From: a virus
Taxonomy: Duplodnaviria; Caudoviricetes
IMG/VR virus record: IMGVR_UViG_3300047565_000174
Coordinates: 1 to 24,286 of that record
Strand: one strand, 5' to 3'
DNA: 24,286 bases
Position numbers and translations under genes: made by a program. The notes under the pieces are model-generated. The model was not told where the DNA came from. It was given only the letters and a program-made list of their open reading frames with translations, and searched no databases. Positions within the stretch are counted from its first letter, which is position 1. Every line of letters begins with the position of its first letter. Below are positions 18,629 to 21,813 of this stretch, piece after piece.

Positions 18629-18919
18629 TTATTCGGATGGTTCATATTCTAACTCCTTAACCAGCTTATTTATAAACTCCTCGCCGACTCCAGCAACCCT
18701 TTGTTTGCTTATCACCTTTACCATAGTCTCCAGAATCTTAAGAGCTTCCTTTTTACTATCGTCTTTTAACACTCCAAACATTACTTCCAAATATCGTTCA
18801 TTATCACGTCTTTCGTTAATTCCCCACAAAAGCGCATCCTTGAACTCATTGCCAATATCCCCTTTTAAATAACGCTCTATAACAATCTCTTCACACTTTG
18901 CTTTGGTTGGTAGAGACAT
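18629..18919 (-). CDS. Hypothetical protein = 3' exon; first codons (MSLPT) and RBS lie inside intron domain VI
   Basis: AAGGAG 18933-18928, ATG 18919; inferred intron-free start is ATG 20851-20849 joined to AAA GCA AAG at 18904. Confidence 0.75.
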   Translation of the reverse strand: MSLPTKAKCEEIVIERYLKGDIGNEFKDALLWGINERRDNERYLEVMFGVLKDDSKKEALKILETMVKVISKQRVAGVGEEFINKLVKELEYEPSE

Positions 18920-18975
18920 AGCTCTTACTCCTTATTTAATTTTTTTTTGTTTCATTGCTATTGTCCCCCCAGGCA

Positions 18976-19008
18976 GACCCCTGCGTACAGTTTTCCCGTA
19001 CAAGGTTC
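18976..19008 (-). ncRNA. Group II intron catalytic domain V
   Basis: GAACCUUGU ACGG GAAAA CUGU AC GCAGGGGUC: two stems, AC bulge, GAAAA loop; triad AAC. Confidence 0.88.
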
Positions 19009-19025
19009 CACAATAAAGCATTCCC

Positions 19026-20342
19026 CTATTTTGACGTTGTTTTATATAGTGGATGATATATTCTTGGTACTGGCAATGGATTCCATTGTAAGTACTGTTG
19101 AAACACTTCCCAAGTCATACTTTTACGTTGACTCCGTCGATTGATTCCTTTGAATATTATTCTTTTCACTAAATAATAAAACTGTTGTAAACTTCTATAG
19201 TTTCCACTAATCCCAAAGTAACCATAATGCCCAATTAATTTGGCTTTCAGTACTGGCCACCATTCTTTTAAAGGTCGAGAATTCTTTACTACCTTTACCC
19301 ATTCCTTGATTTCTTGTACCTTACGATTTAGATTCTTTTTAGAGGTCTTATGAACCATACTAAAGTATCCATTTCTACTTGTTCCGCAATAATGCGTAAA
19401 GCCAAGAAAATCAAAGGTTTGAGGTTTTTCTCCACCTTTCTTCCATAATTGCCAAGCTTTCCTGCCAAATTTTACTACCTTAGTTTTATCAGGTGAGACA
19501 GATAGCCCAAACTTGCTAAATCTCTCTTCTAATTGTTCTAAAAATCCTTTTGCATCTTGCTCACTTTCGCAGCACACAACAAAGTCATCGCAATACTTAA
19601 TTAGTTGTACGTAACCCTTCGTTTGTAGCTTAAATTCCTTTTCAAACCACAAATCTAGTACGTAGTGTAAGTAAATATTTGCCAATAGTGGACTTAAATT
19701 CCCACCTTGCATTGCCCCTTGATCATTTACTTGATACTTACCATTATCAATTACTCCAGCTTTTAATATCTGCCTTACTAACCACATTAAATTTGGGTCA
19801 GCAATTCTCTCTTCTAAACAGCGTTGTAGCCAATAGTGGCTTAAGGTATCGAAAAATTTCCTAATGTCTACCTCAGCAATAAAGTTAATCGGTTTCTTCA
19901 TCACTTCTTGATTAATCTTGTAAACAGCTTGAATACAATTGCGGTTAGGGCGAAATCCATAAGAAGTCTCTAGAAAATCAGTTTCATAAATGGCTTCGAG
20001 TATCTTCTTCACCATTAACTGAACTAACTTATCTTCTACTGTTGGCAGACCAAGACCTCGCTTTTCATCCCTTTTTCCAGGTTTAGGAATGTATACCCTC
20101 TTTACTGGTTGTGGTTTGTAGCTTTTAGTCTTTAAGCGTATCAGTAGGTTGTTGATATTCTCCTTAAGATTTCTTCCATATTCCTCAACTGTAACGTTAT
20201 CAATTCCACTCGCCCTGTTACGTTTGAGTTCTTGATAACATTTTACGAGATTCGCTTCGTTGATATGATGTATCAGCGAAGTAAACTTTAGTCGTTTATT
20301 AGTTCTAGCCTTTTCGGTTATCAGATCGAGTTTGTTCTTCAT
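19026..20342 (-). CDS. ltrA: Group II intron reverse transcriptase/maturase; start reassigned to ATG 20342
   Basis: KFTSLIHHI, ASGID, RVYIPK, LGLPTVEDKLVQ, SYGFRP, DIRKFFD, QGGNLSPLLANIYLH, YCDD, FDFLGF, domain X; GGAGG upstream. Confidence 0.95.
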   Translation of the reverse strand: MKNKLDLITEKARTNKRLKFTSLIHHINEANLVKCYQELKRNRASGIDNVTVEEYGRNLKENINNLLIRLKTKSYKPQPVKRVYIPKPGKRDEKRGLGLPTVEDKLVQLMVKKILEAIYETDFLETSYGFRPNRNCIQAVYKINQEVMKKPINFIAEVDIRKFFDTLSHYWLQRCLEERIADPNLMWLVRQILKAGVIDNGKYQVNDQGAMQGGNLSPLLANIYLHYVLDLWFEKEFKLQTKGYVQLIKYCDDFVVCCESEQDAKGFLEQLEERFSKFGLSVSPDKTKVVKFGRKAWQLWKKGGEKPQTFDFLGFTHYCGTSRNGYFSMVHKTSKKNLNRKVQEIKEWVKVVKNSRPLKEWWPVLKAKLIGHYGYFGISGNYRSLQQFYYLVKRIIFKGINRRSQRKSMTWEVFQQYLQWNPLPVPRIYHPLYKTTSK

Positions 20343-20642
20343 TAGTTTTCTTAACCTCCGTGTGTTAACTAACAGGCCACTCAACCTGTCTCTTTATTGT
20401 TGACCGCTTCCCCATGTACATAGCTTTCTCATGCTCGGAGTACTATCAGTCAATACGACTTCTGCTCAATCTTTTGTCCATCCTTGCCTTTTCTGACTTG
20501 TTTGAACATACTCTCATATCATGAAAGAACTTAGCAGATCTCCCAAGTCCGTCTATAAGTCCTATCTTACATCATGCCGTTGCCTTAGACTCCGGTAGAG
20601 TAGTTACCACCTTGCCATTTCGTTGATAACTATGTTGCCTTC

Positions 20643-20658
20643 CAGTAAAATGAAACTG
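20643..20658 (-). other. Intron EBS1 stem-loop (CAGU-UUCAUUUU-ACUG)
   Basis: CAUUUU pairs with the last 6 nt of the 5' exon AGAAUG (5 WC + 1 G.U). Confidence 0.75.
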
Positions 20659-20826
20659 TCGGCCTCTACAATATCAGTATTTTCGGAGCTCAATACACTA
20701 TCTTTTGATCCGGCCTAATATATCCCTCCCTTTAGCTTCACTAAATTTGTCACCTCCTCTAGTGTAAAGTTTAGTTTTACGTTGGTGGCTAACCTTTACG
20801 TACATTGGATTTTCACCAATTAGAAC

Positions 20827-21813
20827 TTATGCGTTTACCTTGGCGCACCATTCTTTTGCTCCTAATCTTTTGTTAGAATGGTACTTATTATATCTCCTAG
20901 CAAAATTCTCATTCTTATCTTTTTCTAAAATTATTAGCTGTTTACACTTATTAACTCTGATTTCCAAGTCATCTACAGACTCCGATAACTGATTCAACTG
21001 CCTGGTTACCAGTTTTATTAACCTCGCTATATGCGTAAAAGACATATGGAATTCGTCATTTTCTCTAAACCACTCACGAACAGACCAGTAATAGATTTCC
21101 CTAAAATCCTTACTACTATGATATCCATCTAATACATTATAAATATTAGTTATATGTTGTTGAATAATAACTATTAAATCACAAGGCAATTTTAAGTAAT
21201 CTTTATTACTCTCTAATCGATTGCTCTTTTGAATCTGAGTATAAACCTTCTTAATACTGGATTTACCTTCTGCAACTTCGGCTTTTTGTTCTTCTGTTCC
21301 TTGTTGTTGAATTTTATCGTACTGAAAAGCTGTCGTATGGCTTACACCTGCTTTCTTAGCAATAGCCTCTAATGCTCTTCCTTTCTCTGTATTTTCAGGT
21401 TTTTGCTCATTTATTTGCGGTGTGTAAACTGGTGTACTAGCCGTATTATCTATTTCCTTAAACTGAGTAGCTTGCATTCGTTCTTTAGCCTTCTGGGCTT
21501 CCAGTTCCTTAAATCTATAAGCAAGTGCTAACCTAGTTTCAGTAGGTAAATTCCTTCTGCTAAACTGGTTATTGATCATCCAGAGTTTTACGTCTAGCTC
21601 AGTCTCCAGCTCTGGCTTCTCTATTATGTTGAAGCTTATGCCGTGTTTACTGCAAATAGCATATCTATGGTGTCCGTCTATTATAGTATTGTGCCATACC
21701 ACTAACGGATCACGGCAACCTTCTTTAAGTAAGCTCTGCTCTAAATTATGTAACTCATCACCAGATAATGGAGGGATAAGCCCAGCAAATTCTTCGTTAA
21801 TAATGAAATTCAT
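20827..21813 (-). CDS. ParB/Srx N-terminal domain protein with HTH; last 7 residues and stop are intron-encoded
   Basis: LIPPLS..E...LEQSLLKEGCRDPLVVW..TIIDGHHRY; NQFSRRNL; IAKKAGVS HTH. Confidence 0.8.
   Translation of the reverse strand: MNFIINEEFAGLIPPLSGDELHNLEQSLLKEGCRDPLVVWHNTIIDGHHRYAICSKHGISFNIIEKPELETELDVKLWMINNQFSRRNLPTETRLALAYRFKELEAQKAKERMQATQFKEIDNTASTPVYTPQINEQKPENTEKGRALEAIAKKAGVSHTTAFQYDKIQQQGTEEQKAEVAEGKSSIKKVYTQIQKSNRLESNKDYLKLPCDLIVIIQQHITNIYNVLDGYHSSKDFREIYYWSVREWFRENDEFHMSFTHIARLIKLVTRQLNQLSESVDDLEIRVNKCKQLIILEKDKNENFARRYNKYHSNKRLGAKEWCAKVNA

Follow-up and report, generated by a model that had tools for sequence, protein, structure and literature searches.

An apparently intact and recently mobile group II intron lies in a stretch of tailed-phage DNA of 24,286 nucleotides (nt; positions 1 to 24,286 of IMG/VR record IMGVR_UViG_3300047565_000174, here called the window), inserted in the ATGA stop/start overlap between a ParB-like gene and a small gene of 92 amino acids (aa). 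Domain VI of the intron carries a Shine-Dalgarno (SD) sequence and an ATG in frame with the 3' exon, and it is likely (we give this a probability of about 0.7) that they let ribosomes start the 92-aa gene in frame on unspliced RNA.

Insertion site and structure of the intron

The features on which the argument depends are the following; RT stands for reverse transcriptase, ORF for open reading frame, EBS and IBS for exon- and intron-binding site, and MFE for minimum free energy.

20849 to 21813, minus strand: 5' exon, the ParB-like gene (321 codons and the TG of its stop codon), from the ORF list, PHROGs and 47 related loci
20859 to 20863, minus strand: native SD sequence AGGAG, 7 nt upstream of ATG 20851-20849 (spacer caaaaga, 20858-20852)
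18905 to 20848, minus strand: group II intron of 1944 nt, from GTGCG to ...CUACCAACC, from Rfam, near-identical copies in other flanks and the frame logic in relatives
20827 to 20829, minus strand: TAA in frame with the ParB-like gene
20580 to 20813, minus strand: domain I core, RF02005 (group-II-D1D4-6), 141 bits, E 1.5e-40, full model 1-225, gathering score 49
20675 to 20679, minus strand: candidate EBS2, UACUG, read by eye from pairings in seven relatives
20647 to 20652, minus strand: EBS1, CAUUUU, in a hairpin loop of domain I, pairing with IBS1 AGAAUG (20854-20849), from an alignment of 20 relatives
19026 to 20342, minus strand: RT/maturase, 438 aa, Pfam RVT_1 with E 1.9e-35; best PDB matches are group II RTs (7uim, E 5.5e-44)
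18976 to 19008, minus strand: domain V, from RF00029, helix covariation and a table of catalytic triads
18908 to 18971, minus strand: enlarged domain VI with a basal helix, a 34-nt open A-rich loop and a bulged branch A at 18911, from the MFE fold and RNAalifold
18928 to 18933, minus strand: SD sequence AAGGAG supplied by the intron, located in the loop of domain VI and left unpaired by the MFE fold
18917 to 18919, minus strand: ATG supplied by the intron within the 3' strand of domain VI; it follows AAGGAG after 8 nt, precedes the 3' splice site by 15 nt and shares the frame of the 3' exon
18629 to 18904, minus strand: 3' exon, codons 2-92 and the stop of the small gene; its first base, A, completes the ParB-like TGA

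Read on the minus strand with a slash at each junction, the 5' exon meets the intron at ...AGGAG caaaaga ATG/GTGCGCC, and the intron meets the 3' exon at ...AAGGAG taagagct ATG TCT CTA CCA ACC/AAA GCA AAG. The insertion point is thus between the G and the A of the ATGA overlap. Joining 20849 to 18904 gives GAA TG/A AAG, in which TGA ends the ParB-like gene (...GAKE and stop) and ATG-AAA opens the 92-aa gene, so that ATG 20851-20849, the last 3 nt of the 5' exon, doubles as the start codon of the downstream gene (ATG plus 18904-18629). An earlier note on this DNA had described the intron in this overlap with both codons restored by splicing, and all of its coordinates are correct on the minus strand; it had also listed three other ATGA overlaps, two of which are there (2934-2937 and 12295-12298), the one at 18125-18128 being GTGA. 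The 5' exon was assigned by PHROGs ParB-like families (E 2.6e-10), and the 92-aa gene has 16 related loci with 47-100% identity from residue 1, although its product gave no Pfam or PHROGs family match.

Judged by its parts, the element is a complete group II intron, with the ribozyme domains, an RT/maturase and EBS1-IBS1 pairing all present. It begins at 20848 with GTGCG, in agreement with the GUGYG of group II 5' ends, and the RT/maturase is encoded in domain IV; in the Pfam scan no domain besides RVT_1, and hence no endonuclease domain, was detected in the 438-aa RT. Domains V and VI match RF00029 with 30.1 bits, which is below the gathering score of 40; the last base of the match is exactly 18905, and it is the only domain V/VI (D5/6) match in the region. 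RNAalifold of 30 sequences places the bulged A at column 124, six nt from the intron end, with compensatory changes in 12 of 20 pairs of the domain V and VI helices. These 30 were taken from 35 candidates, the omitted ones being L151, which is close to L155, and L087, L096, L156 and L157, members of a sister group whose short domain VI has no start.

The domain V of the window is unusual in its catalytic triad, which is AAC with a G opposite the middle A in place of AGC with a G.U pair. The AAC/G triad is common to five unique introns of the near subclade and AGC/U is found in 50 of the clade; the AAC introns are evidently still mobile.

Three kinds of evidence define the intron boundaries. 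Firstly, the EBS1 loops of 20 relatives change in step with the last six exon bases (EBS1/exon pairs CAUUUU/AAAAUG, UCAUGA/UCAUGA, CCAUUG/CAAUGG, CUGUCA/UGACAG, ACAUUU/AAAUGU, CAUUUC/GAAAUG and GGAGUA/UACUUU), and because EBS1 and IBS1 covary the 5' splice sites are fixed. Secondly, copies that are 99.5-100% identical occupy three or more different sites, and outside the window flanks their similarity breaks off precisely at GTGCG and no more than one base from 18905; L254 supplies a 5' junction (...CAGTACAAAAATG/) and L224 a 3' junction (/ATTAAATTAAGA...). Thirdly, the alignment of domains V and VI from the 30 sequences puts the bulged A six bases from the intron end; the introns of relatives end there in ...CCAACY or ...CGAC, and no other end leaves the exon ATG of L226, L232 and L225 in frame with their long ORFs.

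The copies in L254 (1895-2210) and L224 (1100-1500), 99.5-99.9% identical, form a twintron: in both, the RT gene is interrupted at intron position 900 by another, different group II intron, represented by its 5' end (GTGCGTCC...) and by its 3' end with the maturase tail and domains V and VI. Another copy, 99.6% identical (L223, 845-3100), is situated in the middle of a cold-shock-protein gene after ...GQRVSF, with EBS1 unchanged and only three of six IBS1 positions pairable.

Intron-free relatives

Viral contigs were scanned with the two exon proteins, giving 16 loci for the 92-aa protein and 47 for the ParB-like protein, and 22 loci were inspected at the end of the ParB-like gene. One of them, L018, is the same intron-bearing sequence. 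In 18 loci the ParB-like gene ends in ...YYG and a stop (TAT TAT GGC TAA) and overlaps by 8 nt a separate gene ATGGCTAAAGCA..., which opens with ATG GCT AAA GCA (A/G)A(A/G) TG(C/T) GAA GA, that is, MAKA(K/R)CEEIV. L056, whose product is 79% identical to the ParB-like protein of the window over residues 217-321, ends in ...GGAGCAAAGGAATGA (...GAKE and stop) with an intron-free ATGA overlap, which leads onto a different downstream gene. The predicted spliced reading, in which the ParB-like gene ends in ...GAKE and the small gene starts as MKAKCEEIV..., fits these relatives, and a fused ORF does not. The intron-free alleles asked for in the earlier note are therefore two overlapping genes and not one continuous ORF. 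The exact 5' exon end was found in viral contigs only in the identical contig and in L056, and this search did not turn up the intron-free allele predicted for this phage. Megablast of 18100-22500 against the phage collection gave no match, tblastn of the ParB-like protein against phages gave N-terminal matches only, which are uninformative for the junction, and a single-protein RT scan of viral contigs returned nothing but the identical contig.

Start and stop signals carried by the intron

Splicing at GUGCG and six bases past the branch A would rebuild GAA-TGA and ATG-AAA. On unspliced RNA, the ParB-like protein would be extended by seven residues (WCAKVNA) and stop at TAA 20829-20827 (ORF 20827 to 21813, 328 aa), and ribosomes would bind at AAGGAG, within the open loop of 34 nt, and start at 18919, reading MSLPT into KAKC (ORF 18629 to 18919, 96 aa), so that the small protein would carry MSLPT in place of its M. 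The domain VI motif AAGGAG-8 nt-ATG and its frame were as the earlier note had them, in both the sequence and the ORF. Unspliced RNA would still yield both proteins, and the insertion would therefore cost little even without splicing. The branch A, 8 nt downstream of the domain VI AUG, and the 3' splice site, at 15 nt, would both be covered by a ribosome initiating there, and translation and branching on one RNA would therefore be expected to exclude each other.

The same note saw adaptation in the replacement stop as well. The TAA is real and adds WCAKVNA as described, but it is weak evidence of adaptation: all three reading frames entering the intron close within 12 codons, and a replacement stop is for that reason not special.

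The native SD-ATG on unspliced RNA would also open a 12-codon ORF (MVRQGKRISSNW; window 20813-20851, minus strand), which ends at TGA 20815-20813 and runs into domain I. Translation of this ORF into the ribozyme could interfere with folding.

The pattern across the intron lineage

Scoring covered 7996 RT homologues. A collection of 215 loci with RT relatives was assembled, the window included, of which 72 have an RT identity of at least 44% and make up 60 unique junction sets; the lineage counts below refer to these 72 loci. At the 5' side, 34 of 46 unique junctions have an exon that ends on a start codon or one nt past it (29 ATG, 5 GTG or TTG), and 26 of these 34 have an SD core 4-13 nt upstream. 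At the 3' side, a domain VI ATG is found at 13, 15 or 16 nt from the end in 31 of 47 unique 3' ends, with an SD-like core 6-13 nt upstream in 24 of the 25 ATG-bearing introns that were aligned. Modulo 3, the distance of the domain VI ATG matches the 5' offset in 21 of 22 cases; only L092, where the call of the 5' end is weak, departs from this. When at least 150 nt of 3' flank was available, the domain VI frame opens an ORF of at least 45 aa in 14 of 23 introns versus 3 of 46 for the other two frames. Unspliced products of this kind look like true N-termini: in L226 MSLPT would be followed by KRLLLISFIFLPLFVFSSGC, which can be read as a lipoprotein signal peptide, and in L232 MSLPY by KRICDIVFALIGLLL. 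The homologues thus bear out what the earlier note expected of them, namely that insertions follow start codons and that the domain VI SD and ATG stand in frame with diverse 3' exons, and to judge from these counts the domain VI start is a lineage-wide design and no local accident.

Some ways of counting were abandoned. An initial heuristic for domain VI chose the wrong branch A in several loci and gave way to a test anchored on YTACY; a helix test took the place of a strict regular expression for domain V, which recovered only 34 of the 215 loci; and a loose comparison of the clade (33 of 58) with the outgroup (16 of 111) was too noisy, its 300-nt range reaching downstream gene starts.

An RT tree was made with FastTree from 41 sequences, rooted on L159, after five broken-ORF sequences were dropped. 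In this tree, read for its topology without regard to support values, all start-bearing introns form one group, and the sister group has an ordinary short domain VI without a start. The subclade of the window, with offset 0 and ATG at 15 nt, is monophyletic and nested among introns with offset 1 and ATG at 16 nt. The EBS1 of the lineage keeps CAU, by which the intron lands 0 or 1 nt past a start codon, and the frame is kept because the domain VI AUG sits at 15, 13 or 16 nt. A landing site and a domain VI register shifting together in this way would be a rare example of an RNA catalytic domain evolving under the coding constraint of host genes.

Two arrangements among the relatives can be mentioned here. 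In L153 two family introns (at 1012 and 3439) stand in tandem in successive genes of one viral contig, each one base past the start codon (..TAATATGC/ and ..AAAAGATGA/). In L077 (960-980; RT 52% identical) the 5' exon ends in ...ATGA/ and a 283-codon upstream ORF stops at that TGA, making it a second residence in an ATGA overlap, but with the stop intact in the 5' exon.

Strength of the interpretation and alternatives

Several observations weigh against initiation at the domain VI start, or limit what the counts can carry. In the window, AGGAG-N5-10-ATG occurs 6 times versus 4.5 expected, and 32 of 100 shuffles reach 6; the window alone being at chance level, the significance of the motif comes from the related introns. 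The AUG sits in the domain VI helix, which must open before initiation. The stretch, in whole or in part, is present in twenty sequencing runs, of which six are recorded as RNA libraries, and neither a spliced nor an intron-free joint was seen in the contigs of four runs (X3, X4, X15, X16); the cold-shock-gene copy (L223) occurs unspliced in an RNA-library contig (run X15), which could also be DNA carry-over. Among the unique 5' junctions, 8 of 46 have no start codon within 5 nt, L231 and L146 included. Together with these two, L223 and L227 are exceptions to start-codon residence, and L223, where the intron is out of frame in the cold-shock gene behind a coincidental TTG, is counted among the 34. 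Residence at start codons is a strong tendency and not a rule. In 9 of 23 cases the domain VI frame opens no ORF of at least 45 aa. The 3' ends were set by the YTACY-anchored helix heuristic with three manual corrections (L066, L067, L146), and the 21 of 22 register matches are not independent, as the tree implies one coordinated shift (1/16 to 0/15) and 3-nt steps (13 versus 16). Finally, the candidate EBS2 fits the L254 site (CAGUA) in 5 of 5 positions and the window site in only 3 of 5, and the window insertion may for this reason be ectopic.

One alternative, which we consider unlikely, is that the domain VI SD and AUG serve the intron itself, ribosome loading timing or blocking the branching or protecting the RNA, with the exon frame being secondary. 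The position of the AUG, 8 nt upstream of the branch A and with the splice site 15 nt away, would indeed make a ribosome compete with branching, since the footprint of a ribosome is roughly 30 nt. Ribosome association is also described to protect a group II intron RNA in the part of the report available (PMC3851717), which favours such a role. Such a function, however, needs no frame, yet the register agrees in 21 of 22 introns and long ORFs follow in 14 of 23 versus 3 of 46.

A further reading, which is rather improbable, is that target choice combined with purifying selection on hosts gave rise to the pattern: only insertions at gene starts would survive, and the SD and AUG of domain VI would be inherited but untranslated baggage. 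Both EBS1 and EBS2 vary from intron to intron, making each intron site-specific, and Wolbachia-type copies have lost or moved the ATG (ACA in L148, ATA in L069 and a distance of 17 nt in L155). However, the SD and ATG persist down to about 46% RT identity while adjacent columns of the domain VI helix covary freely, the sister group has an ordinary short domain VI without them, and the sole change of the 5' offset was accompanied by a matching 1-nt change in domain VI.

A single continuous ORF split by the intron, with C 18905 as the first base of the 3' exon and the joint GAA TGC AAA giving a ParB-like fusion, can be virtually dismissed. In its favour, an intron end at AC 18906 fits the textbook AY 3' end, and the frame stays open. 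Against it, a stop and a separate, overlapping start are found in all 18 intron-free relatives, L056 ends in GAATGA, Rfam ends the intron at 18905, and relatives end six nt past the branch A, the only end that keeps L226, L232 and L225 in frame.

Initiation from domain VI on unspliced RNA is thus the interpretation that we prefer for the window. A broader one, which we offer tentatively, is that a large endonuclease-less lineage parasitises translation-initiation regions, with the CAU of EBS1 directing it to AUG, and has rebuilt domain VI as a portable ribosome-binding site and AUG by which the displaced start is restored in frame. Insertion at a gene start, or even in a 4-bp stop/start overlap of a compact phage genome, would then be near neutral without splicing, and ribosomes would be set against branching. 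The usual view is that bacterial group II introns persist because they keep out of genes or because they splice efficiently. If the interpretation is true, a substitute start carried by the intron would be a third survival strategy, in which insertion is translationally harmless; it would explain the presence of such introns in tightly packed phage operons, predict a built-in competition of translation and splicing, and offer a natural template for gene-neutral insertion cassettes.

Comparison with known introns

Introns at initiation and termination codons are known from the specialised IIB1 (CL1) introns Avi.groEL and EcKTE56.groEL (PMC12584367, citing Michel et al. 2007). As in our case, the accessible text of that account describes a monophyletic group II lineage located within or next to start and stop codons, and in the groEL introns, which are within a stop codon, UAA becomes UAG upon insertion, a parallel to the split TG/A and the substitute TAA found here. 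The IIB1 lineage, by the same text, has an insertion of 300-700 nt near the 5' end, which the window intron lacks: domain I as matched by Rfam begins 36 nt into the intron, and the 506 nt from the 5' end to the RT cover domains I-III and IVa. The 438-aa RT of the window, in which no endonuclease domain was found, is also unlike that lineage. No intron-borne SD and ATG in domain VI is mentioned in the accessible portion of the IIB1 account (PMC12584367).

C.te.I1 of Clostridium tetani resembles the window intron in having start codons inside D5/6 (PMC3919590). According to the available sections of that paper, C.te.I1 lacks an intron-encoded protein (IEP), draws on four alternative D5/6 units, has its 5' splice site displaced by 8 nt, and fuses ORFs and produces isoforms. 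In contrast, the window intron has one D5/6, an IEP and a canonical 5' site set by EBS1, and its splicing is predicted to separate two genes, so it does not belong to the C.te.I1 type. IIC-attC introns with outward promoters (PMC3001079, available part) likewise give an expression signal that rescues a downstream gene that was cut off; there, however, the signal is a promoter and the intron is on the attC bottom strand, whereas here it is an SD and AUG on the sense strand. A promoter scan of the window intron gave 10 hits versus 10.3 expected, and thus no outward promoter signal.

The nearest named RT relatives are from Wolbachia, Rickettsiaceae and other bacteria, with 60-66% RT identity and the same ribozyme 5' end, GTGCGCCAAG. 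These introns likewise reside at start codons and have a domain VI ATG, at 16 nt; their landing site is one base past the start codon, whereas in the window subclade it follows the start codon directly and the ATG is at 15 nt. One Wolbachia intron, W.e.I5, was placed in group g2 of the former class F by Toro and Martinez-Abarca 2013 (PMC3552965, available part). The earlier note calls the intron class E-like; the segment from the branch point to the 3' splice site is 6 nt here versus the 7 nt given for subgroup E in the accessible text of PMC9294222. A lineage with an SD and ATG in domain VI was not described in the available parts of PMC12584367, PMC3073962, PMC4424553, PMC4028801, PMC3552965, PMC8919778, PMC7306698, PMC3919590 or PMC9294222, or in literature searches; Michel et al. 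2007, Simon et al. 2008 and supplements were outside this scope.

Genomic context and other observations

More distant introns (L159-L222, viral contigs, RT about 37% identical) have an ordinary short domain VI and stand directly after a palindrome of the type TACTGTATATAAAAACAGT, which resembles the consensus of the LexA box. No paper on this palindrome was found, and LexA is not mentioned in the available part of Waldern et al. 2020.

The earlier label of the window as a prophage was not borne out; the record is a viral contig with a completeness of about 51%. Every gene of the window is on the minus strand in the ORF list, and the content is that of a tailed-phage genome: a DnaB-like helicase, the ParB-like protein, the intron, the 92-aa gene, a DUF5681 protein, the large terminase, the portal, head genes and a tail sheath. 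Between the portal region and the head genes there is a gene for a patatin-like phospholipase (12295-13338, minus strand; Pfam E 1.5e-22).

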